A DNA stretch of 64,000 nt from an uncultured Candidatus Saccharibacteria bacterium. GTDB lineage: Bacteria > Patescibacteriota > Minisyncoccia > Phycocordibacterales > DATDWN01. The stretch lies in contig CAYVNM010000002.1 of NCBI GenBank assembly GCA_964453075.1, forward strand, positions 4,279 to 68,278, read 5' to 3'. The translations under genes and the position numbers were made by a program. The stretch's first letter is position 1. Every line of letters starts with the position of its first letter. Positions 3,981-64,000 of the stretch are shown one piece after another. The notes under the pieces are model-generated. The model was not told where the DNA came from. It saw nothing but the letters and a program-made list of their open reading frames with translations, and searched no databases.

Positions 3981-4829
3981 TTAATTGAATAAACTCAAAA
4001 ACTCACCCAATCCCATAACATCTATACGCAACATAAAAACGATCATTATTGCAATGATTAAAAATGGAGCAAATGGAATTTCAGTTTTCATTCCTATCTT
4101 TGTATCATTACTTATTTTGCTATGAATTAAGAGGATAATACTCCACAAAGCCCCGAGCCAAAAAGCCAGTACTACGGAGCCCACACCAAAAACAAACCCA
4201 GACATTGCACCTATTCCAAAAACCAATTTTGCATCACCAAATCCGATCCATCTTCCACCAGACACCAGCCATAATAAAGCAAAAGGTATAAACAAAATAA
4301 ATGGTGCAGATAAATCAAACAAATCTACAGGTCCAAGTGAAAAATCCTTACAGTAAACAAAAATAAATAATTTCAAAAAGCTCAAAAAAATAAAAGTATA
4401 TACTAAGGTGTTTGGTATTATTTTATGTCGTATATCATAAAGCATCACCACTATCAACAAACTGAAAACAAAAGCGTAATAAATAAAGAATAAAACTGAA
4501 TAAATCAGTCCGTGTTCAAAGGCACCATATATTGGCCACAAGGCAACTTGTCTCATTGCTATCGCCAAAAAAACGAGACCAGTCAATAATTCAACTATTG
4601 GATATTGTATGGAAATACCGTTTTTACAAGAACGACATCTGCCTTTTAGAAAAAAATAACTTAAAATGGGTACTAATTCATACCACTCTAGTTCTTTGTC
4701 ACAAGAAAAACACCTAGATCTGCCTTTTGTAATAGACATACCTGTATTAAAACGGAAAGCTATTACATTTAGAAAACTACCTATTAAAGTACCAAAAACA
4801 AATATGTAAAAAAAATTTAGAGGATTCAT
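3981..4829 (-). CDS. pilD: Prepilin peptidase (A24 family) PilD.
   Basis: N-terminal CxxC...CxxC zinc knuckle (CFSCDKEL...CRSCKNG), polytopic membrane protein, and the GFGDAKL catalytic Asp motif. Sits immediately downstream of the pilins. Confidence 0.85.
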
Positions 4830-18827: not shown

Positions 18828-19019
18828 TTACACCTTCCTCTGTCGAACCTTCCTGGTTCCATTGTGCCCGTGAGAACCCTTCTTCGGATCCTGTGGCACA
18901 ACCTTCTCTTCTCGTCCCTTGGGTGGATTGACCAGAACTTCCGCCTGCGCGGACCCCTCGGTTGCGACTGCAAACGGAGAGTAGAACGCTTTCGTTGCTG
19001 GAAACAATCTATGGGCCAT
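18828..19019 (-). CDS. Small basic protein of atypical GC-rich composition (gene K), unknown function.
   Basis: 63 aa: MAHRLFPATKAFYSPFAVATEG...KKGSHGHNGTRKVRQRKV. Strong SD (taGGAGGttgtccaATG). Local GC far above background. Upstream palindrome CAGAGTCTcccAGACTCTG (19239-19257). Confidence 0.45.
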   Translation of the reverse strand: MAHRLFPATKAFYSPFAVATEGSAQAEVLVNPPKGREEKVVPQDPKKGSHGHNGTRKVRQRKV

Positions 19020-19301
19020 TGGACAACCTCCTATACCAGGATACTAAAAACTTAGATTAATACAAGTATTATAGTTAAACCAGAGCCTACGAGACTCTGC
19101 TGAGAGTGAACCATATCGTCACGAGTTTTAAAAAGCCGACACTTAAGAATCTCGAAACTTACAGTTTCTGTACACCTGTTCTGTTTTTTACTTCGTAAAC
19201 TCGTAAAAAACTATCACAGGTTTTCGAGTCCTGACACAGAGTCTCCCAGACTCTGCTGAGGGTAAACACGTAAAAAAGCACCTTACGTGCTTTTTTTCGT
19301 G

Positions 19302-19375
19302 TCCGCCCTCCAGGACTCGAACCTGGGACCCCAGAGGTATAAGCTCTGTGCTCTAACCAACTGAGCTAAGGGCGG
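19302..19375 (-). tRNA. tRNA-Ile(UAU) (AUA decoder).
   Basis: Minus-strand sequence CCGCCCT-TA-GCTC-AGTTGGTTA-GAGC-A-CAGAG-CTTATAC-CTCTG-GGGTC-CCAGG-TTCGAGT-CCTGG-AGGGCGG-A. The anticodon loop CTTATAC gives UAU. Terminator hairpin lies immediately downstream (19273-19300). Confidence 0.7.
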
Positions 19376-22920: not shown

Positions 22921-23109
22921 ATGACCGAACTGGAAATGAGCCTCGGGAACATCAAGACTGCTGTCGACGCTCAGGCAAAGCTCTTGGAAGCTGCGTTGGC
23001 ACTTGCCGAGGGAAGTGTGGATAAACACAATTCTCTCCTGCTTGAAGCGAAGAACATTTTCGATGCACGCATCGCCGAGCTCAAGAAGGAACTCGAGCAG
23101 ATGGAGTAG
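22921..23109 (+). CDS. Small coiled-coil protein of atypical GC-rich composition (gene E).
   Basis: MTELEMSLGNIKTAVDAQAKLLEAALALAEG...ELKKELEQME. Promoter TTGACA-17-TATCTT (22868-22896), SD AAGGAGG, and terminator agaccgc...gcggtct after the stop. Confidence 0.5.
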   Translation: MTELEMSLGNIKTAVDAQAKLLEAALALAEGSVDKHNSLLLEAKNIFDARIAELKKELEQME

Positions 23110-34554: not shown

Positions 34555-34731
34555 ATTTAAATAAAAAAGCTCTTTAAAGCTCGGGTTCATACTAGCAATT
34601 AAGCCTTTTAAAGTCAACATGCTGTTTTCATGTACGAAAAACTGGCACACCCCCAAGGGAATGTGCCAGGCGAGAGATTGGTTTCTCTCGAGAACTTGCC
34701 GGGGTTACGCCCGACGCGTGTACTTGTTGGG

Positions 34732-35274
34732 CTAGCCGATTAGCTTATTCAGGACCGCCGCCCAGTCCTTAGACTCAGCCTTCCGACCAGCATCCTGGAA
34801 AAATCGCAGGACGGCACCGTTCGCGAAGCGGAATGAATCACGTATTCTGGATGATTCCTCCAGAATAGACCCTTCCGCATTCTGGTGATGGTGGTTGGAG
34901 AAAACCACCGCCACAAACCTGGTCCCAGCTGCTATTGCCGACAGGGCAAGCTGGTAACCCACCAACTTCTCAGTGCCCCAGTCCGAATTGTGATAAAATC
35001 CATCAAATGGCATCATGCCGTCCGACAACACGACATCCCACGGAACACCAGCACTGAAATCCTCGTAATGCTTGTTGCTCCAGGACGAATAGCTGCCAAT
35101 CGAACGACCTGCCGTGAGATTGGCAACCTTGCGGTTCTCCACCGAATCTCCCCGACTAATGAGCATGTTGCCCATGTCGTAACTTGCAGTGGTGAACACG
35201 TCGTGTGACCCCCCCAATTGGGCGATGGCCCCATCGAGGTTTTCCTGCCGATCGTCAATAACCAAGATCTTCAT
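34732..35274 (-). CDS. GC-rich inserted gene A: divergent CheY-like receiver-domain protein. Unknown function. Lies inside the spc operon between rplE and rpsZ.
   Basis: MKILVIDD...DVVLSDGMMPFDG...RFVAVVFSNHHH receiver-like motifs with long insertions. Extended -10 TGTATAAT, SD AAGGAG-ctacc-ATG. Composition clearly above background. Confidence 0.55.
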   Translation of the reverse strand: MKILVIDDRQENLDGAIAQLGGSHDVFTTASYDMGNMLISRGDSVENRKVANLTAGRSIGSYSSWSNKHYEDFSAGVPWDVVLSDGMMPFDGFYHNSDWGTEKLVGYQLALSAIAAGTRFVAVVFSNHHHQNAEGSILEESSRIRDSFRFANGAVLRFFQDAGRKAESKDWAAVLNKLIG

Positions 35275-35461
35275 GGTAGCTCCTTGGCCCCTAGGGCCGG
35301 AAAAAGTGGTTGTCAAACTGTCCACCTAAAATTATACACCTATTTAATCTCTTTGTCAATTGTTTTTGCCGATACCCACCCTCTAAACAGCAAAATAGCC
35401 CTATATTTAGGGCTATTTTTGCAAAATCCAAGGGGAGTCCTTGGATTTTAGTAATTTTCTG

Positions 35462-36067
35462 TTATTTCTTTATATTCCAGCCTTTCTTTTTTGCCTTTGG
35501 AGCTTCTGTCTTTGCAACTGTTGTCTCTGTACCTGGTTTTTTGAATGGGAAACCTAGATGAGCCAGGAAACTTCTAGTTTGTGCCGCATCATGAACGTTT
35601 GTAACGATAGTTATTGCAATACCAAATATGTCTTTCAAATCCTCGTCTGATGACTCTGGGAAAATGGTATTCTCTCGAACACCTAGAGTGTAGTTACCCA
35701 TTTCATCAACACCTGTTGTTGGTATACCTCTGAAGTCTTTTGTTCTAGGAAGAGCAATGTTTATAAGTCTGTCTAGGAAATCATACATCCTGTCTCCTCT
35801 CAAAGTTACTTGCATGCCAACAGTATCCCCCTCTCGCACCTTGAATGCTGCAACTGATTGCTTTGCTCCCTTTCTAGCTGGTTTTTGTCCTGTGATTTTT
35901 GAAAGTCTATCTGCAATAAGTTCAATTTTCTTTTTGTCTTTTACTGAACCAACACCAGAAGAAACAACCACCTTTAGGATCTTTGGTGCTTGCATAGCAT
36001 TCTTATAACCAAACTCTGATTTCATGGCAGTAAAGGCTTCTTTTGTTTTTTCTTTGATGTTTTTCAT
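35462..36067 (-). CDS. rplE: Ribosomal protein uL5 (Lys-rich C-terminal extension).
   Basis: FGYKNAMQAPKILKVVVSSGVG. Confidence 0.85.
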   Translation of the reverse strand: MKNIKEKTKEAFTAMKSEFGYKNAMQAPKILKVVVSSGVGSVKDKKKIELIADRLSKITGQKPARKGAKQSVAAFKVREGDTVGMQVTLRGDRMYDFLDRLINIALPRTKDFRGIPTTGVDEMGNYTLGVRENTIFPESSDEDLKDIFGIAITIVTNVHDAAQTRSFLAHLGFPFKKPGTETTVAKTEAPKAKKKGWNIKK

Positions 36068-39374: not shown

Positions 39375-39824
39375 CTACCCACCATCTCCACCAGAGTTCG
39401 CAAGCTCTTCCTGCTTCTTCTGGTAGTACTCCCAAGCCTGCTCCACGGAGGCCATGATTGACAAGATGTCTGGTGAGGTACTCACCACCACTGACATCAT
39501 AGAGACATCGATGAGATTCCTTAGAAGTTTATTCTCATCGACTGAATCATTCGCTGAAATACCCAGACCTTCTTCATGTGCATATTTGACCGCTAACCCC
39601 CAGTAGCGATTGTAAACCACCGGCCCCTCTCGTTGAATCCGTGTCACCACACGCCAGAACTTTGTGATAAACTCCGACTTTTTCACTGAACCACTCCTTG
39701 AGAGCTGGCAGAATTGCCGTCTGGCCCCAACTCTACGCTTTTTAGACAAAACGTCAATGTTAACAAAAACACCACTCGAGTGAGTGGTGTTTACAGTTTG
39801 GCGAATTGTATCTTCGAGAAACAT
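39375..39824 (-). CDS. GC-rich inserted gene C (149 aa, unknown function), inside the S10 operon between rplB and rpsS.
   Basis: Long minus ORF in a roughly 690-bp block of atypical composition. No SD. The start codon abuts a 20-bp inverted repeat. Confidence 0.4.
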   Translation of the reverse strand: MFLEDTIRQTVNTTHSSGVFVNIDVLSKKRRVGARRQFCQLSRSGSVKKSEFITKFWRVVTRIQREGPVVYNRYWGLAVKYAHEEGLGISANDSVDENKLLRNLIDVSMMSVVVSTSPDILSIMASVEQAWEYYQKKQEELANSGGDGG

Positions 39825-39957
39825 CCGCAGGCGCTGAGCTTGGTGTTGTCAACGACCCTGAGTGAAACGAGGGGTTCTTGACGACGAAGCGCCGAGGACA
39901 GAACAAGGCTCCCGCTGGAGGAGCCTTGTGTTTTTGAGAAGATACAATTCGCCAAAC
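39796..39957. repeat. 20-bp perfect inverted repeat pair (GTTTGGCGAATTGTATCTTC / GAAGATACAATTCGCCAAAC) flanking a 122-bp segment upstream of gene C.
   Basis: Copy 1 at 39796-39815 overlaps codons 3-9 of gene C. Copy 2 at 39938-39957 ends 5 nt from the rplB stop. The spacer carries gttgacaac (minus strand) and a hairpin plus T-run terminator (plus strand). Confidence 0.7.
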
Positions 39958-39961
39958 AGGA

Positions 39962-40804
39962 TTACTTTCGCTTTCCTACCTTTCGGCGAGAAACAATGAA
40001 TTTATTTGAGTATTTCTTAGGAGTTCTTGATTTCTGTCCTTTTCCTGTTGGTTTACCATAAACAGATATAGCTCTCTTGCGTCCTCGTCCTTGTACACCC
40101 TCACCTCCTCCGTATGGGTGATCAACTGGGTTTTGTGCTGTACCTCTAACTGTAGGACGAATACCAAGCCATCGTGAACGACCAGCTTTACCGAAGTTTA
40201 CTAGTCTTGTTTCGTTGTTTGATACTTCACCTATACTTGCATATGCTGTTTCTTTTATTTTTCTGACCTCAGTTGAAGGCATTTTTACATCTACATAACC
40301 AGCATCCTTTGCAATAACTTCTATATAGTTACCAGCTGAACGAGCGAGCTTTGCTCCTCCAAGAGGCTTTACTTCAACATTGTATACAAATGTTCCTATA
40401 ACTATGTTTTTCAAAGGAAGTCTGTTTCCTGGCTTCTGCTCTACATTCTCTCCGGTAACACAAACATCTCCCACTTTTACAGAACGAGGAAGAAGTACAT
40501 ACCTCTTCTCGCCATCTCTATATTGAGCTAGACCAATAAAACCCGCTCTGTTTGGATCATATTCTACTGTTTTTATAGTATAAGGGATATCTATTTTGTC
40601 ATATTTAAAATCAATCTCTCTCCAAAGTCTCTTGTGTCCACCTCCTTTGTGACGAGTTGTTATTTTACCATGATGATTTCTTCCTACTGGTCTTTTGAAA
40701 CCACGAGTAAGTGATTTTACTGGATCATTTGAAGTAACGACACCACTATAAGAGATGTTTGACATGTGTCGGCGACTTGGAGATGTTGGTTTATACTTTT
40801 TCAT
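39962..40804 (-). CDS. rplB: Ribosomal protein uL2.
   Basis: GRNHHGKITTRHKGGGHKR. Confidence 0.9.
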   Translation of the reverse strand: MKKYKPTSPSRRHMSNISYSGVVTSNDPVKSLTRGFKRPVGRNHHGKITTRHKGGGHKRLWREIDFKYDKIDIPYTIKTVEYDPNRAGFIGLAQYRDGEKRYVLLPRSVKVGDVCVTGENVEQKPGNRLPLKNIVIGTFVYNVEVKPLGGAKLARSAGNYIEVIAKDAGYVDVKMPSTEVRKIKETAYASIGEVSNNETRLVNFGKAGRSRWLGIRPTVRGTAQNPVDHPYGGGEGVQGRGRKRAISVYGKPTGKGQKSRTPKKYSNKFIVSRRKVGKRK

Positions 40805-42447: not shown

Positions 42448-42645
42448 ATAAATTTGGAGACGATTTTCGGACAGTAATGAGAAAGTATCTTCCCAACATT
42501 GCCCTTCGCTAGTCCCCACAAAAAAGTCGCTTTAAGCGATTTGGCTATACTAGCAGATATCCATTTTTTATTCAAGTGTTTTAAAGATTAACAAAAAGAC
42601 CCCACAACAGACGAGAGCGCGAGGCCTTTCTGTTGGCAGGGTCTA

Positions 42646-42870
42646 CTACTTCACCTCAACTGACGAGGTCGGGGTCTCGGACTGGATCCTCTCCGCCTGA
42701 AGCTGGGTCTTGATGAGCTCCAGGATTCCCACAAGCTCCACTTCCGGGATGTTGGTGGTTCTCGAGAACTCACTCACATTCCCGATGATCCAACCCATTA
42801 TCCCCGGGTTCTTCCTGATCAGAGCCTTGAGAATCCTATAGGAACTCAAGGCTTTGTGCATTTCGTCCAT
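42646..42870 (-). CDS. GC-rich inserted gene D (74 aa, unknown), between rpsJ and rplC.
   Basis: Own promoter TTGACT-16-TATTTT, SD gaaAGGAGGagacaccATG, and own terminator after the stop. Composition atypical. Confidence 0.5.
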   Translation of the reverse strand: MDEMHKALSSYRILKALIRKNPGIMGWIIGNVSEFSRTTNIPEVELVGILELIKTQLQAERIQSETPTSSVEVK

Positions 42871-43368: not shown

Positions 43369-43464
43369 GTTGTATGAAGATACTAGCAGATAATGGTTTT
43401 TTGTTCAAGTTTTAGATATATACAAGAAGACCGCCACGAAGAACTAGTGTGGTCTTCTTGACGG

Positions 43465-43692
43465 TCAATTCGCAAGCTTCGTTCTCTTAACCTGAATCGC
43501 CTGTACAGATCTTCCGAGCCTGCTTGCGAGCTCACGATCTGTACAACTTCGATCTTGGATTGCCAGAATTTCATTCTGTGACCAAAATCTCCCCGAGTTA
43601 ACTGCCCCCTTCCTGGTTTTTGCATAATTCCTGGCGCGGTCTCTTTTTCTTGTACCCGGATTTTTTTCATACCACACTTTGTTGTTTGGCAA
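43465..43692 (-). CDS. Small basic HTH-like protein (gene J, TTG start), atypical composition.
   Basis: Promoter TTGACA-17-TTAAAT, SD AAGGAGGgatttcTTG. C-terminal ILAIQDRSCTDRELASRLGRSVQAIQVKR is helix-turn-helix-like. Confidence 0.45.
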   Translation of the reverse strand: MPNNKVWYEKNPGTRKRDRARNYAKTRKGAVNSGRFWSQNEILAIQDRSCTDRELASRLGRSVQAIQVKRTKLAN

Positions 43693-43837: not shown

Positions 43838-43945
43838 TTCCAATTTTAAATGCAGTACCAGGTGGACAAGAAAAAACCGCGAGCCTTACAAAGATAAGGT
43901 GAGCGGCTTTTTTCGTAGTCCAAACGCAATGCATTAAAATTGGAA
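43838..43945. repeat. Intergenic repeat element R1 (terminal IR attccaattttaaatgc/gcattaaaattggaat plus an internal bidirectional terminator).
   Basis: 16-bp terminal IR. Core ggacaagaaaaaaccgcgagccttacaaagataaggtgagcggcttttttcgtagtcc shared with R2. Confidence 0.6.
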
Positions 43946-50906: not shown

Positions 50907-51152
50907 ATGAAAGTGCTGAAAATGTTCGAGGTTGCTGAAGCATTGTTCCGAGTTGGTGGAGGTGAACACAGATTCCAACTCGGAATCCCCGTCACCGTCA
51001 AAAACACCAGTACGGGAGAAGAAATCAGAATCGTCGGAATTGAAGTCAACGAGACCTACAAGGATGTCGTGCATCTGTACGCCGAAAACAGCATCCAAGC
51101 TCTCAGCCCCGACAACTTCGAGATCGTCGGACCAGCGCCAGACGCCCAGTAG
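50907..51152 (+). CDS. GC-rich gene F (81 aa, unknown).
   Basis: Promoter TTGCAA-17-TAGAAAT, SD AGGAGGtacccaATG, terminator aaggccccgagtaattaggggcct-tt (51157-51183). Confidence 0.5.
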   Translation: MKVLKMFEVAEALFRVGGGEHRFQLGIPVTVKNTSTGEEIRIVGIEVNETYKDVVHLYAENSIQALSPDNFEIVGPAPDAQ

Positions 51153-51527: not shown

Positions 51528-51878
51528 TTACGTAGTTCTCTTTGAGAAATGTACCAGGTGTTCAAGAAGCAGTGAAAGTCTTACGGGCACACCCGCAGCG
51601 TCAGCGATACCTGCAAGGTATCTGAGCTCGTCACCTGTAAGCGTTTGATCCGGCGCCAGAACTCGCTTCCCCAACTTTGAAAGAAAAGCCAGGCGATCGA
51701 CTGGAACGCCAAGAACCTCAGCAACGTGCTCTAGGCGTTTCTTCGGTATGGGGCGCGTACCGTTCAGTACCTGCTCGTACATGAACGCAGAGAAACCAAG
51801 TAGTTTACCAAACTCTCCCTTAGTCTCACCGCGCTCAACTCTTTTTGCCTCAAGTAACTTCTCAATCTCACTCTTCAT
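51528..51878 (-). CDS. GC-rich gene G: XRE-family helix-turn-helix transcriptional regulator.
   Basis: GETKGEFGKLLGFSAFMYEQVLNGTRPIPKKRLEHVAEVLGVPVDRLA is an HTH_XRE motif. Promoter TTGACA-17-TAGTTT, SD AGGAGGgttctaacaATG. Confidence 0.6.
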   Translation of the reverse strand: MKSEIEKLLEAKRVERGETKGEFGKLLGFSAFMYEQVLNGTRPIPKKRLEHVAEVLGVPVDRLAFLSKLGKRVLAPDQTLTGDELRYLAGIADAAGVPVRLSLLLEHLVHFSKRTT

Positions 51879-51973: not shown

Positions 51974-52088
51974 TTCACAATTTGAATGAAACCCGAGGCG
52001 GACAAGAAAAATGACCCGAGCCGTACTGTCGTACGGTGAAGGGTCATTTTTTCGTAGTCCAACAAAGGAGTTCGTCAAATTTGGAAAC
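51974..52088. repeat. Intergenic repeat element R2 (immediately 3' of the rpsG stop).
   Basis: ttcacaatttgaa...ggacaagaaaaatgacccgagccgtactgtcgtacggtgaagggtcattttttcgtagtcc...gttcgtcaaatttggaaac. Hairpin with A- and T-runs gives a bidirectional terminator. Confidence 0.6.
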
Positions 52089-54010: not shown

Positions 54011-54193
54011 TCACGATGCAGCTCGGTTTTTGTCTGGCGTTTCCTGTTCCCGCCAAACAACACGCCCACACTCTGGACAAGCCCATTTCTCCATGACCGG
54101 CCCAATACCAGTCAAGAAAGGTACGGGTTTGCCGTTGCGATCGAGCACACGCTCGAACTCCACATCACACTTTATGCAAGTTTTCTTGTCCAT
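54011..54193 (-). CDS. GC-rich gene H: 60-aa zinc-ribbon protein.
   Basis: CIKCD...CPECG (C4). Extended -10 tgTATAAT, SD GGAGAGGAGGtgtgccATG. Confidence 0.45.
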   Translation of the reverse strand: MDKKTCIKCDVEFERVLDRNGKPVPFLTGIGPVMEKWACPECGRVVWREQETPDKNRAAS

Positions 54194-54241: not shown

Positions 54242-54490
54242 TCACCTTTTGGGCGAAGCTGTTCTAAGAAAAGAAAGATCGACGGACGAGACCTGCTCCT
54301 CCACAACGACTTCCACGAGATTGAAGTTTGAACACTCTTCTGGATTCGGGAGACTATCGATGTGGCGCCGAACTACCGCCTCCATCAATCTTTCTGAGTT
54401 AGCCTTGAACTCAAACTTCCCCACGACAAACTTCAGTGGAGAAAGAGAGTGAGCAGTCCTAACCCAAGTAAGTCTGTACTTATGAACCAT
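54242..54490 (-). CDS. GC-rich gene I (82 aa, unknown), immediately upstream of gene H on the same strand.
   Basis: SD GGAGGtgttatATG. Atypical composition. Confidence 0.4.
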   Translation of the reverse strand: MVHKYRLTWVRTAHSLSPLKFVVGKFEFKANSERLMEAVVRRHIDSLPNPEECSNFNLVEVVVEEQVSSVDLSFLRTASPKR

Positions 54491-58454: not shown

Positions 58455-58757
58455 ACTTTTTATATACGAAAAACGGCGCCCTCTTTCGAGAACGCCGTGG
58501 AAGTATGGGGGTTGGTTTACGGCTGTATCCCCCGGGGTCGCCAGCCCTTAGCCTACGTGTGCGCCGGGTCTTCCAGCCCAACGACTGAATCTACCACGGT
58601 GGCATTATATTTTAACTCTTAGAAAGATCTTTGAATCCGGACATTTCGCTTATAAGCTGGCTGTTCCGGCAGGCCAAGGAGACTTGAGCCCTGATTCTCC
58701 CAACAGGTCATATTTCTGGCCTTATTTCTGCGACACCCCTTTCGGTTTGTCTTTCGG
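58455..58757 (-). ncRNA. Candidate structured ncRNA (about 300 nt), identity unresolved (RNase P RNA, SRP RNA or novel).
   Basis: Near-consensus promoter TTGACA-17-TATACT on the minus strand (58764-58792). Intrinsic terminator cggcgccctctttcgagaacgccg plus a T-run at the 3' end (58455-58486). GC-rich. No ORF longer than 33 aa and no SD. Confidence 0.5.
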
Positions 58758-58807
58758 TTTATTTATCTTGTATAAGTATATCACAGTACTATATTTCTGT
58801 CAAGCGA

Positions 58808-60779: not shown

Positions 60780-61196
60780 ATGTTAACAAACACTGATACT
60801 TCTAACGGGACAAGCAATTGTATATTTTGCAAAATAGTGAAAGGAGATCTTCCTTCACATCGGGTTTATGAGGATGATAATTTTTTGGCATTTCTAGATA
60901 TCAACCCTGAGTCTCCTGGACACACTTTAGTTATACCGAAAGAACACTACCGCTGGGTATGGGATGTTCCAAATGCCGGAGAGTATTTTGAAGTTACCAA
61001 GAAAATTGCACTGGCACAGAAAAAAGCTTTCAACACTGATTTGGTTATTTCTAGGGTTGTAGGAGAGGAAGTTCACCATGCACACATCTGGGTATTCCCT
61101 GCTTCTTTCAACAAAGGAGAATTTGAAAAGACGGCAGGTGACAAAAAAGACTTCGCTGGAAATGCAGAAAAAATAAAAAAGGAATTGCAAAACTAA
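60780..61196 (+). CDS. HIT-family (histidine triad) hydrolase.
   Basis: CIFCKIV...PESPGHTLVIPKEHY...HHAHIWVFP. Confidence 0.8.
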   Translation: MLTNTDTSNGTSNCIFCKIVKGDLPSHRVYEDDNFLAFLDINPESPGHTLVIPKEHYRWVWDVPNAGEYFEVTKKIALAQKKAFNTDLVISRVVGEEVHHAHIWVFPASFNKGEFEKTAGDKKDFAGNAEKIKKELQN

Positions 61197-61951
61197 ATTG
61201 ACTCAACTAGTTTTATTATTTCAATAAAATCTTTTGCTCTTAAACTTTCTCGTCCAACTAAGAGGCCCGAAACATTTCCATCACGAACAAGCGAGTCTGC
61301 GTTGACCCTATCAACATCTCCTCCATAAAGAATTTTCATGCTATCTGAAAAAGTTCCACACAAATCTTTCAAAACTTTTTTAATAAAAATAGAAGTCTCA
61401 AGTAGGTCCCTTGGGCTCATGGACTCCCTCGCTCCGATAGCCCACAAAGGTTCGTAAGCAATAATAACTTTGTCTAACATTTTTTTTGGAACATCTTTGA
61501 GTCCAGACACAATTTGCTGTTTTATGAAATTATAAAAATCTCCATTTTGATCTCTCATCTCCTCCCCTACACAAAGTATGGCCGTCATACCACCACCAAC
61601 TACTGCTCTAACTTTTTTATTTATCAACTCATCACTCTCTCCCATTTTTCTTCTCTCTGAATGTCCGACAATCACATAGTCAACTTTGAAATCTGATAGC
61701 TCCGTGTAGCTCACTTCACCAGTGAAAGGTCCTTGTGACTCATAGTTTGCATTTTGAGCACCCAGAAAAAAATTAGAATCTGAAAGAGAAGTGAGGGGTG
61801 GTAGAAAAACAAAAGGAGGACAAACAACCACATCTGTTTTTTTCAGTTCTCGTGTTGCTCTCTTTACACTCTGCGCTAGTTTTTTTGCTTCATCCAAACT
61901 TTGTGGGTTCATCTTCCAATTTCCCACAACAAGCTTTTTAGATTTCTTCAT
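61193..61951 (-). CDS. tpiA: Triosephosphate isomerase.
   Basis: GNWKMN, IVGHSERR, and AYEPLWAIG catalytic motifs. Confidence 0.85.
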   Translation of the reverse strand: MKKSKKLVVGNWKMNPQSLDEAKKLAQSVKRATRELKKTDVVVCPPFVFLPPLTSLSDSNFFLGAQNANYESQGPFTGEVSYTELSDFKVDYVIVGHSERRKMGESDELINKKVRAVVGGGMTAILCVGEEMRDQNGDFYNFIKQQIVSGLKDVPKKMLDKVIIAYEPLWAIGARESMSPRDLLETSIFIKKVLKDLCGTFSDSMKILYGGDVDRVNADSLVRDGNVSGLLVGRESLRAKDFIEIIKLVESI

Positions 61952-62201
61952 CCCGTTAGAAATAGGAAAGCTTTTTGAAAAACCTTTCCATAGTTACTTA
62001 ATAATAAATGTAAATGATTATGTTTCCCGTTATAACCAGCATCTCTCACAAAATAACAAAATGATTTCTAACGGGACAAGTCCTTACAATTATATCACAA
62101 CAGTTTTTATACGAAAAAACCCGATACAGAGAATCTGTATCGAGTGTGTAGGTAGGGTGCCGAGGCACCCTACCTTGGATGTACTACCCACTGCCCAGGA
62201 A

Positions 62202-62630
62202 CTAGCAAGCGGGCTTGCGAACCCCGAGAAAACGATCGTCCTTGTACCAGCTACCTCTCCACACACCAAGCCCTCGCAAAGAGGAGCAGAACTTGCTGAG
62301 ATATGCCACACAAAGGTCAGTGTGGTCCCAGCAAAATGAGCCCAAAGCGACAATCACGAATTCTCGCTGGATGTGGGGATACTTCGACCCAAAATCCAGA
62401 AGTTCGTGGATGGTTGCCGGTCGGAATCCCAACCTGTCTATCTCCGAGATAGCCTCACTGCGCGAGATGAACCTGTTGAGGTGTATGAGCTCGGCGCTCA
62501 CTTGCACTTCGCCAGTTCCCGTCTTGGGGAAATTCGCCTCGGTGATGCGAAAGTCAACCTTATCGTAATTTCCAGCCGCAACCATGTCGGCCACGGTAAG
62601 ATTGTGGTTAACAACGAGTTCGTACACCAT
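62202..62630 (-). CDS. GC-rich gene B (142 aa, unknown).
   Basis: Extended -10 TGTATAAT, SD AAGGAGatataccATG, and a double-hairpin terminator at 62100-62200. The 5' region is homologous to that of gene A. Confidence 0.5.
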   Translation of the reverse strand: MVYELVVNHNLTVADMVAAGNYDKVDFRITEANFPKTGTGEVQVSAELIHLNRFISRSEAISEIDRLGFRPATIHELLDFGSKYPHIQREFVIVALGSFCWDHTDLCVAYLSKFCSSLRGLGVWRGSWYKDDRFLGVRKPAC

Positions 62631-62768
62631 GGTATATCTCCTTGGCTCTGATAGCCGAAGTTGTTGTCAAACTGTTCTGAGTACTATTATACACCTAAAT
62701 AGATAGAATGTCAAGGATTTTATGGTAAAAATGGCAAAAAAGACCTAAAATAGGCCATTTTGCTAAAA

Positions 62769-62881
62769 CTTCCAAATTTGGATGAAATCCGACGTGAGAA
62801 ATTAAAAAGGCGAAGAGCCTTACTGTCGTAAGGTGATGAGCATTTTTAATTTGGGAACGAGGAGTTCGCCAAATTTGGAAG
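62769..62881. repeat. Intergenic repeat element R3 (immediately 3' of the stop of the large secreted-protein gene).
   Basis: cttccaaatttgg...gccttactgtcgtaaggtgatgagcattttt...gagttcgccaaatttggaag. Terminal IR CCAAATTTGG and an internal CCTTAC-TGTC-GTAAGG hairpin as in R2. Confidence 0.6.
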
Positions 62882-62883
62882 TT

Positions 62884-64000
62884 TTACCTGATCTCGTCCC
62901 AGGAGACTATTTGGTATTGATCGGAAGTCAGTGGAAAACTCGGAGGCGGACCATACAACAAATTTGCATCATAAGTTATATTTCTAGTGTTATACCCAGT
63001 GCCATCTGTATAAGCAAAACCATAACGTATATTTGTACCTATCATTCCAAATAAAGTTATAGAATTTCTATCATAACCACTACCACAATTAGAAGAATAG
63101 TAATAACGACCAACACGACCATTTTGAGCGATAAGAGCAGCATCTATTCTCAAATCATTCAGACTTCCAAGTCCAGCATTGATGTTACCCTGAGCAATGA
63201 GAGAGATGACATCTTGACCGTCATAGTTTGTGTACAAAAGATTGTTGTTCACAGTAATACTTGGTCTGGTACTTGCATTGTCTGGAAATCTACCTGCAGC
63301 TAGAGTTACACGAGCAGTATTGATTTGTCCTTCTGCCCACACGTTATCCTCCACAAAAATTAATCCATTTGCAGGAATTGGATAATTACCAATAAGAGTT
63401 TGGTTACCACTTCCAGTAGTTCTTATCGTCCACGTCCCCCACCCTGATTGGTTTGCAGAGTTACTACAACCACTAGGAGCAGACATTAAGTTGTTAACTC
63501 TATAAACATCAAATGTGTCATTCGTCTTAAAAAGTATTCTATAACCCAAGGCACCAGAACCGGACAGATATCTCCCACTGGCTTGAGCATCACTTTTTAT
63601 TTGAGCCAAATCTGTAGTCAACCCGACAAAATCTATTGCTGGAACCGGAAAAGATCTACCTATCATAAAAACATCTACACGACTAGCCACTCCGCTTGGA
63701 GGAGCTTCGGCAGCTCTGAACGTATCATTTACTCCACTTCCAGGTGGTGGATTTACATGTGTGTGTACTCCAAACTCCATATTTCCCGAATGGTCTGGAT
63801 CGTCATAAACATCTTTTGCACTAGTAATAATATTATGAGCTATTCCATCAAAACGTATACCTCCATTTGAGTGTATCGGACCAAAAACTTCTGTTCCCTG
63901 ACCAAAGCGCATGCTGTCATTTGCAGCGATAGCATATCTGGCAAAAGAAGGGATAGCCAACTGAACAACTATGGAACGAGAAATGGTTGGGTCCACCAAT
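62884..64000 (-). CDS. Large secreted/surface hypothetical protein (C-terminal part. The N-terminus is beyond the window).
   Basis: At least 371 aa, Gly/Asn/Thr-rich, beta-rich. ORF open to the window edge. Confidence 0.4.
   Translation of the reverse strand, partial: LVDPTISRSIVVQLAIPSFARYAIAANDSMRFGQGTEVFGPIHSNGGIRFDGIAHNIITSAKDVYDDPDHSGNMEFGVHTHVNPPPGSGVNDTFRAAEAPPSGVASRVDVFMIGRSFPVPAIDFVGLTTDLAQIKSDAQASGRYLSGSGALGYRILFKTNDTFDVYRVNNLMSAPSGCSNSANQSGWGTWTIRTTGSGNQTLIGNYPIPANGLIFVEDNVWAEGQINTARVTLAAGRFPDNASTRPSITVNNNLLYTNYDGQDVISLIAQGNINAGLGSLNDLRIDAALIAQNGRVGRYYYSSNCGSGYDRNSITLFGMIGTNIRYGFAYTDGTGYNTRNITYDANLLYGPPPSFPLTSDQYQIVSWDEIR

Follow-up and report, generated by a model that had tools for sequence, protein, structure and literature searches.

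The 64-kb stretch of DNA analysed here (the window; guanine plus cytosine (GC) content 37.6%, with the majority of genes on the minus strand) belongs to the chromosome of an uncultured Parcubacteria bacterium of the candidate phyla radiation (CPR). Two small GC-rich genes in it, gene A between the ribosomal protein genes rplE and rpsN and gene B upstream of tpiA, have similar upstream regions, and the subject of this text is the expression module that these regions appear to contain. The coding strand is the minus strand at both loci, and coordinates refer to the whole window. The features predicted at the gene A locus are, in the direction of transcription:

35423-35449, a second, site-specific hairpin just after rplE
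35392..35419, minus strand, terminator-like hairpin AAAATAGCCCTA...TAGGGCTATTTT with a perfect 12-bp inverted repeat, the 5' end of the module at the A site
35331..35359, minus strand, sigma-70-type promoter of gene A, TTGACA-17-TATAAT with AGGTG abutting the -10 box (12/12 consensus; -35 box at 35359-35354)
35280..35330, minus strand, leader of gene A, with ACAGTTTGACAAC at 35321-35309, a pyrimidine tract, a stem-loop and the Shine-Dalgarno sequence
35298-35286, minus strand, leader stem-loop GGCCCTAGGGGCC (GGCCC-TAG-GGGCC)
35285-35280, minus strand, Shine-Dalgarno sequence AAGGAG of gene A; ATG at 35274
34732..35274, minus strand, gene A, 180 amino acids (aa), 54-55% GC, between rplE (35462-36067) and rpsN
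34633..34669, minus strand, terminator of the gene A unit, a 12-bp stem followed by the tail TTTTTCGTA
34589..34617, minus strand, restart promoter of rpsN (S14), TTGACT-17-TAGTAT with the -10 box preceded by TGC; it bounds the slot of the gene A unit on the right

Gene A thus has two hairpins upstream and, downstream, a terminator followed by a separate rpsN promoter; its transcription would start near 35324-35322. The corresponding features at the gene B locus are:

62736..62761, minus strand, terminator-like hairpin AAAATGGCCTATTTTAGGTCTTTTTT, with which the module begins at the B site
62686..62714, minus strand, sigma-70-type promoter of gene B, TTGACA-17-TATAAT with AGGTG abutting the -10 box (12/12 consensus; -35 box at 62714-62709)
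62638..62685, minus strand, leader of gene B, with ACAGTTTGACAAC at 62675-62663 and AAGGAG at 62643-62638; ATG at 62630
62656-62644, minus strand, leader stem-loop GGCTATCAGAGCC (GGCT-ATCAG-AGCC)
62202..62630, minus strand, gene B, 142 aa, about 54% GC, between a 371-aa hypothetical gene (62884-63999) and tpiA (61193-61951)
62174-62151 and 62145-62119, minus strand, pair of hairpins at the 3' end of the gene B unit, with the tail TTTTTCGTA after them at 62118-62110

The predicted restart promoter of tpiA is TGATATAAT.

Read on the coding strand, the two upstream regions share one order of elements: TTGACA, 17 nt ending in AGGTG, TATAAT, 9-10 nt, ACAGTTTGACAAC, a pyrimidine-rich stretch, a GC stem-loop, AAGGAG, 5-7 nt and ATG. 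A first-pass annotation of this DNA had proposed that these regions are homologous while the coding sequences behind them are unrelated, and both proposals hold. Global alignment of the two 70-nt stretches gave 53 identical positions in 75 columns, which makes the annotation's figure of about 45 of 70 a conservative one, and the best BLASTN segment between the two regions covers 64 nt at 73.4% identity. The Smith-Waterman score of the two 170-nt upstream regions was 36, compared with 10.6 ± 1.7 (maximum 19) for 1000 dinucleotide shuffles, and no other part of the window matches the A locus as well as the B locus does. BLASTP of gene A against gene B gave E = 21, and the coding sequences on the other side, rplE and the 371-aa gene, are likewise unrelated (E = 0.8). 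Two details of the annotation had to be adjusted. There is a spacer after TATAAT, but it measures 9-10 nt to ACAG instead of 12-13 nt, and the stretch of about 70 nt, although shared, is only part of a true homologous block of about 145 nt, which includes the -35 box and has the upstream terminator-like hairpin as its 5' end (35419-35392 at the A site, 62761-62736 at the B site). According to the alignments, one putative intergenic expression module is present in both upstream regions, in copies that have diverged to about 70% identity over about 145 nt.

Both promoters match the sigma-70 consensus at every one of 12 positions with 17-nt spacing, and the perfect pattern TTGACA-N17-TATAAT occurs exactly twice in the window, in front of genes A and B, versus 0.03 expected. 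The units also have a common 3' tail, TTTTTCGTA, which follows a hairpin in both cases (34641-34633 for gene A, 62118-62110 for gene B). In all seven unit ends that were aligned (window 34633-34641, 58465-58473 and 62110-62118, together with the ends in the related loci L006, L026, L029 and L036, which are described below), TTTCGTA is invariant and is followed by a pyrimidine and a further invariant A (TTTCGTAYA), a tail different from a plain T-run. A scan with the exact pattern GGTGTATAATN{8,12}ACAGTTTGNNAAC was made on reference genomes, metagenomes and viral contigs. It returned the L006 contig and three unrelated genomes resembling chance matches from the reference genomes, 12 matches from the metagenomes (11 of them an unrelated repeat family, while the twelfth, L020, looks like chance) and no match from the viral contigs. 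The metagenome repeat family (L014-L019 and L021-L025; samples Ga0056115, Ga0056116 and Ga0209568) has pattern variants such as GGTGTATAATTCCACACACAACAGTTTGCAAAC and carries the perfect palindrome GTTTGCAAAC or a near-variant of it; the members read showed no apparent -35 box and no consistent or usable downstream open reading frame (ORF).

Judging from their substitution patterns, genes A and B are real coding genes under purifying selection, the ratio of nonsynonymous to synonymous substitution rates (dN/dS) being 0.14 for a close pair of gene-A homologues and 0.2-0.4 for gene B. The GC content at third codon positions (GC3) of gene A is 0.63 versus about 0.25 for the host. Gene A has no Pfam match at threshold, and its homologues are rare (29-52% identity). 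Its AlphaFold2 model has a predicted local distance difference test score (pLDDT) of 81, and the top-ranked matches of this model in the Protein Data Bank (PDB) with Foldseek are nearly all receiver domains, with E from 2.6e-4 and template modelling (TM) scores of 0.4-0.5. The family has invariant residues DD at 7-8 and D85, and the fold carries a large insertion relative to a receiver. On the basis of the model, gene A would encode a divergent stand-alone CheY-like receiver protein. Gene B, which has no Pfam match either, is a member of a large uncharacterised domain family without a Pfam model; a profile search at E <= 1e-3 returned representatives of 6210 clusters built at 50% identity, and 476 of these also lie at E <= 1e-30. 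The gene-B domain, of about 140 aa, usually forms the C-terminal part of a protein of about 200 aa or occurs as a tandem array of two or three. The AlphaFold2 model of gene B (pLDDT 81.5) gave weak, C-type-lectin-like fold matches, and the predicted folds of the two genes differ. These lectin-like matches had suggested gene B as a target of a diversity-generating retroelement, an idea which was dropped as no template/variable repeat was found in the window. Neither gene has a PHROGs or PADLOC match, and no relatives of either were found in viral contigs.

Comparison with related genomes shows that one site can hold the module with varying cargo, and that one cargo can be found with the module at more than one site. 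One case is L006 (GCA_030916785.1), the DNA of which is about 85% identical to the window across the operon. Between rplE and the start codon, hairpin, promoter and leader included, its sequence matches that of the window at the background level of 83.5%. The place of gene A between rplE and rpsN is then taken by a homologue of gene B (57-60% aa identity), which is followed by 3' hairpins of the B type, and the alignment is regained at the rpsN promoter. The 3' arrangement of two hairpins and tail seen at gene B is also present in L006. The L006 module is A-site-like in its left part (30/34 and 20/28), while from the Shine-Dalgarno sequence onwards to the start codon it resembles the B copy (18/21 versus 10/21 for A), and there is therefore a switch from site-type to cargo-type sequence at the ribosome-binding site. 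The synonymous divergence (dS) between gene B of the window and the L006 copy is 1.13, while that of ribosomal protein L5 between the same two genomes is about half (0.51). The two gene-B copies are therefore not simple orthologues and have not merely co-diverged with their hosts. The window has no counterpart of a further GC-rich segment of L006 (4505-4640, about 130 nt), whose ends CCAGTAGTAGAG...CTTCTACTACCGGG are complementary and which separates the terminator tail of the gene-B unit from the rpsN promoter.

In Parcubacteria GW2011_GWB1_40_5 and its relatives (L029-L034), whose L5 is 86% identical to that of the window, the space between rplE and rpsN is occupied by a different, 156-aa receiver-like gene (3904-4374 in L029; GC 55% versus 39%). 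BLASTP of this gene against gene A gave an N-terminal match only (32% over 31 residues, E = 3e-4), and further motif similarities were seen by eye. The site has a homologous promoter, TTGACAAAGAGCCTAATAGTGCTATACT, a longer leader starting with AAGTTCTTTGAC, the same 3' tail and the same rpsN promoter. It may be added that a GC-rich, fast-diverging receiver-like gene with a conserved HHH motif fills rplE|rpsN in two Parcubacteria lineages. In L036 (L5 87% identical) neither gene nor promoter is present at this position, and about 100 nt of GC-rich hairpins are followed by the identical tail TTTTCGTACATGAAAACAGCATGTTGACT. The gene A promoter has orthologues in L006 and L029, and the rpsN restart promoter in L006, L029 and L036.

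The gene-B unit is found, module included, at a third site in L026, where a gene-B homologue (58% identical by BLASTP) sits downstream of prfA. The L026 module is B-type and about 84% identical to the gene-B module of the window (120/143), with a nearly identical 5' hairpin (29/32 positions), while the coding sequences of the two genes are 67% identical and the proportion of synonymous differences (pS) is 0.53. Since the module is better conserved than the synonymous sites of the gene that it would drive, it is under constraint. A more distant gene-B homologue follows an SMC-like gene in L007-L009, where the architecture (hairpin, TTGACA-17-TATAAT, leader hairpin, AAGGAG) is kept and the sequence has diverged. 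The A-site hairpin (35392-35419) aligns with that at 62736-62761 and with the hairpins of L006, L029, L026 and L007. At every locus examined the cargo genes are GC-rich compared with their flanks (0.51-0.60 versus 0.38-0.49). The gene arrangements of the window recur on independent contigs from JGI, ENA and Logan assemblies, and as three data sets share them, an assembly artefact is ruled out. The portable expression cassette postulated in the first-pass annotation is thus supported, both by the same module standing at rplE|rpsN before a gene-B homologue (L006) or a different receiver-like gene (L029) and by the gene-B unit after prfA in L026.

Taking the observed homology, promoter quality, module conservation, variable cargo and variable location together, we consider it probable that the similarity of the A and B regions reflects common descent of a conserved, insulated and reused promoter unit with exchangeable cargo. 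In such a unit the upstream intrinsic-terminator hairpin would stop read-through into it, the unit's own full-consensus sigma-70-type promoter would drive the GC-rich accessory gene via a leader of about 45 nt, the 3' terminator ending in TTTCGTAYA would end the transcript, and the downstream housekeeping gene (rpsN or tpiA) would restart from its own promoter. A self-contained unit of this kind could sit inside essential operons, as at rplE|rpsN of the spc operon and upstream of tpiA. The module would be resident at rplE|rpsN in this Parcubacteria clade, with a second copy travelling with gene B, and cargo could be exchanged by recombination within the shared 5' and 3' modules. Such exchange could follow DNA uptake, for which comEC (a ComEC domain protein was detected) and type IV pilus genes are present in the window. 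A bolder extension, which we regard as possible but rather unlikely, is that rplE|rpsN and a few other spacers are promoter-equipped slots, in which GC-rich genes from a laterally circulating pool are swapped by recombination between 5' and 3' modules. If true, this would be an integrase-free functional analogue of an integron in essential operons, perhaps fed by natural transformation.

Several points weigh against common descent of a portable unit. An nhmmer profile found only these two module copies in the window, and the one related reference genome has a single exact-pattern copy, so that "portable" rests on five to six loci. At rplE|rpsN either cargo may have come first, and the empty site of L036 may be ancestral or due to a deletion. 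The sequences checked yielded neither a recombinase or transposase nor terminal inverted repeats or a target duplication, and the transcription starts, promoter activity, terminator insulation and recombinational exchange are predictions from sequence. The identity of the leader block at 13/13 positions with less conserved flanks could indicate a trans-acting factor, which is considered further below. Finally, TTGACA, TATAAT, AAGGAG and ATG account for 21 of the shared positions, and these would be expected between any two strong expression signals.

This last point is the basis for supposing that two independent strong promoters and ribosome-binding sites have converged on the same consensus elements. 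We consider this very improbable. The alignment score lies about 15 standard deviations above the shuffles, which effectively refutes convergence, the identity includes parts that belong to no consensus (the upstream hairpin, AGGTG, the 13-mer ACAGTTTGACAAC, the ACTT tract and the position of the stem-loop), and intermediate copies in L006, L026 and L029 connect the A and B modules. The units might instead be non-autonomous mobile elements, such as miniature inverted-repeat transposable elements (MITE-like), outward promoters derived from insertion sequences (IS) or integron-type cassettes, inserted by a recombinase encoded elsewhere. The presence of the same unit at different chromosomal sites in relatives, the hairpins at both unit ends, and the phage-type integrase or ORF6N gene adjoining some distant gene-A homologues are in line with this. 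However, conserved terminal inverted repeats and target duplications are lacking, and the only 12-bp inverted repeat around the B unit (62680-62669 and 62106-62095) is no more than chance would give and has no counterpart in the other copies. The large window genes scanned (a subset of the ORFs) include no transposase or integrase, the copy number is very low and viral contigs gave no relatives. Integron cassettes, moreover, are usually promoterless with an attC site, whereas these units own a promoter. Insertion as mobile elements is therefore quite unlikely in our judgement, and descent from one reused promoter unit is the explanation that we retain.

Two further proposals concern the leader and are compatible with common descent. 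The first-pass annotation had suggested that a common operator co-regulates the dispersed GC-rich genes, possibly via the XRE regulator encoded by gene G (51528-51878). The motif is rare, and not ubiquitous before housekeeping genes, which the annotation had named as the case that would speak against its idea, but it stands at 2 of at least 11 GC-rich genes of the window, and nothing connects gene G, whose HTH_31/HTH_3 match is below the Pfam cut-off, to either promoter. An element of the motif was also said to precede gene C. The sequence GTTGACAAC at 39853-39845 (minus strand) is a chance-level occurrence (one match versus 0.51 expected); it is the 3' arm of a stem inside an unrelated 168-nt hairpin element, about 160 nt upstream of the likely start of gene C and upstream of that gene's own terminator and promoter. 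The module is consequently best described as a reused expression unit, and co-regulation as a shared switch is not supported.

A narrower form of the operator proposal, that ACAGTTTGACAAC (about +2 to +14) is the site of a trans-acting regulator, the XRE-like 51528-51878 product or another, with A and B as a small regulon, is conceivable, although we would not expect it to hold. The 13-mer is identical in the two window copies while the adjacent segments differ (3/10 upstream, 11/21 downstream), and its position over the transcription start is typical of repressor sites. It is changed to ACAGTTTGGAAAC in L006, ACAGTTCTTTAAC in L026 and AAGTTCTTTGAC in L029, as would be expected from co-evolution with a genome-specific factor, with AGTT invariant across the cassette copies and GTT-N4-AAC kept in 4/5. 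Against this, the 13-mer lacks full dyad symmetry, which is limited to the 3-bp arms of GTT-N4-AAC. Its two occurrences are the only ones in the window, and matches with two mismatches or fewer are about as frequent as chance predicts (5 versus 2.8 expected). None of the other GC-rich genes, nine or more, has it upstream, and what was taken for an instance at gene C belongs to an RNA or DNA hairpin as one of its arms. In an alignment of 145 nt at about 70% identity, moreover, 13 consecutive matches are not especially improbable (about 0.3 expected, by our estimate). A weaker version, in which the conserved block at about +2 to +14 (AGTT...AAC) is recognised by some factor, may apply.

The leader could also be a cis-acting RNA, in which the GC stem-loop and pairing between the pyrimidine tract and the Shine-Dalgarno sequence limit or condition translation, in a thermometer-like or protein-operated manner, or stabilise the 5' end of the mRNA. 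The stem-loop is kept in place in 4/4 close copies with differing stems (GGCCC/GGGCC, GACC/GGTC, GGCT/AGCC and GGCTC/GAGCC), and in all four the minimum-energy fold pairs 4 nt of the pyrimidine tract with GGAG, AAGG or GAGA of the Shine-Dalgarno sequence; in the gene A leader the hairpin is predicted to extend via pairing of UUCC with GGAG. However, the fold energies are not clearly better than those of shuffled sequence (z -0.6 to -2.7), the covariation count from four sequences is no better than in controls, the Shine-Dalgarno sequence is free in the diverged L007 copy, and neither locus has an Rfam match, at the gathering threshold or at E <= 1. We therefore hold an RNA function of the leader to be doubtful. 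A pairing of the 5' end of the leader (CAGUU) with codons 4-5 of gene B was predicted in three gene-B messages and not for gene A, and was rejected as a property of the module.

The reuse of a promoter unit has parallels in known systems. Putative mobile promoters were surveyed with a cut-off of at least 50 nt at at least 80% identity, and two-member families were the commonest class (Matus-Garcia, Nijveen and van Passel, Nucleic Acids Res 2012, PMC3488235). The A/B pair resembles these in being a two-member family, conserved from about -5 to about -145, with non-homologous coding sequences both downstream and upstream. Its identity (73% over 64 nt; 71% over 75 columns) is, however, under the 80% cut-off, and it would fit only the "extended family" class (E < 1e-4) of that survey (PMC3488235); it is an older, more diverged pair than the surveyed mobile promoters. 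The A/B module differs further by the addition of an upstream terminator and a shared 3' terminator tail, and by its place in a ribosomal protein operon, where cargo exchange at a fixed site is visible in relatives.

Phage morons are autonomous accessory transcription units, and the units described here are similar in comprising a single accessory gene of atypical composition with its own promoter and terminator inside a conserved operon. Unlike morons, they are found in a bacterial chromosome, in an essential ribosomal operon rather than in a prophage late operon. Signs of a phage context were not found, and a 10-kb megablast query had no match among phage records. The fixed site with a resident promoter and different single-gene cargoes in related genomes is reminiscent of an integron platform. 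In contrast to an integron, there is no integrase (among the large window genes scanned), attI or attC, units elsewhere bring their own promoter, the boundaries of exchange coincide with the Shine-Dalgarno sequence and the terminator tail and not with a recombination core, and the 3' hairpins differ between cargoes. A leader hairpin whose base can be formed by a pyrimidine tract and the Shine-Dalgarno sequence is also known from fourU or ROSE RNA thermometers, but the GC-rich core of the hairpin here lies outside the Shine-Dalgarno sequence and its predicted stability is indistinguishable from that of shuffled sequence.

What is new here is the use of promoter reuse, itself a known phenomenon, as a putatively insulated accessory-gene slot in the spc operon of a CPR bacterium; a new regulatory principle is not revealed. 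A literature search on the ribosomal operons of Parcubacteria turned up no relevant report of GC-rich insertions or of a receiver gene in them, and to our knowledge almost nothing is known about the expression and exchange of accessory genes in CPR/Patescibacteria, these being uncultured. At this locus an accessory gene persists as a putatively insulated unit within the spc ribosomal operon, which is very conserved in other respects, and there is direct comparative evidence that the cargo at rplE|rpsN has been replaced while the expression signals were retained. The locus offers a candidate native set of strong promoter, leader and terminator for Parcubacteria genetic tools, and it draws attention to the persistently GC-rich orphan genes of an AT-rich genome and to the gene-B family outside Pfam.

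With regard to the setting, the window encodes three tRNAs and a transfer-messenger RNA (tmRNA), and because these and ribosomal operons are present it can be assigned to a bacterial chromosome. The closest L5 proteins found in a homologue search carry the names Parcubacteria, Paceibacterota or Zambryskibacteria. The window has a tuf-S10-spc run of ribosomal protein genes, in which L5, S14 and S8 were recognised by Pfam and the others by order and sequence, together with recG, recJ, an RNase H gene and tpiA; smpB and mscL, like the type IV pilus genes mentioned above, were identified by sequence inspection. At least nine further small orphan genes (60-116 aa) have a GC content of about 47-53% versus 37.6% for the window, including:

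18828-19019, 39375-39686, 42646-42870, 43465-43692, 51528-51878, 54011-54193 and 54242-54490, minus strand, GC-rich orphan genes
22921-23109 and 50907-51152, plus strand, GC-rich orphan genes

Most of these have, by inspection, their own promoter and terminator, several lie inside conserved ribosomal operons (L2|S19, S10|L3, tuf|S10 and S7|fusA), and recognisable domains are found in only two, both phage-like helix-turn-helix (HTH) regulators. The A/B module was found in none of these nine or more genes.

Two other GC-rich elements of the window may be mentioned. The 168-nt element at 39795-39962 (minus strand), between rplB and gene C, is Y-shaped with a closing stem of about 20 bp and a minimum free energy (MFE) of -75.5 kcal/mol (z = -8.8). 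A homologue in L026 (1095-1255) keeps the internal hairpins and has a different closing stem (z = -3.5). The element has no Rfam match and could be a structured RNA or a small palindromic mobile element. The element at 58465-58803 (minus strand), between recJ and the RNase H gene, comprises about 300 nt of GC-rich sequence with no ORF of 50 aa or more, a near-consensus promoter TTGACA-17-TATACT and a terminator with an A/B-type tail, TTTTTCGTATA. It has no Rfam match even at E <= 1 and is probably an unclassified non-coding RNA. The loop GTTCTCGAAAGA is common to the L036 hairpin and to the terminator at 58498-58473.

A family of terminators resembling repetitive extragenic palindromic (REP) sequences, with a long hairpin, a CCTTAC...GTAAGG-type core and conserved flanks, is found after tuf, after rpsG and before the gene-B module (43838-43875, 51974-52011 and 62770-62807), as well as in the rpsN leader of L029 (about 4590-4640). 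A tRNA-Ile with the anticodon UAU, which is uncommon in bacteria, is encoded at 19301-19375. The restart promoters of rplC, rpsJ and rpsN (42547-42580, 43380-43413 and 34589-34617) are alike, with TTGAAT, TTGAAC or TTGACT, N17 and TAGTAT preceded by TGC, and the first two share 82% identity over 34 nt. The A/B pair is therefore not the only case of promoter reuse in this genome.

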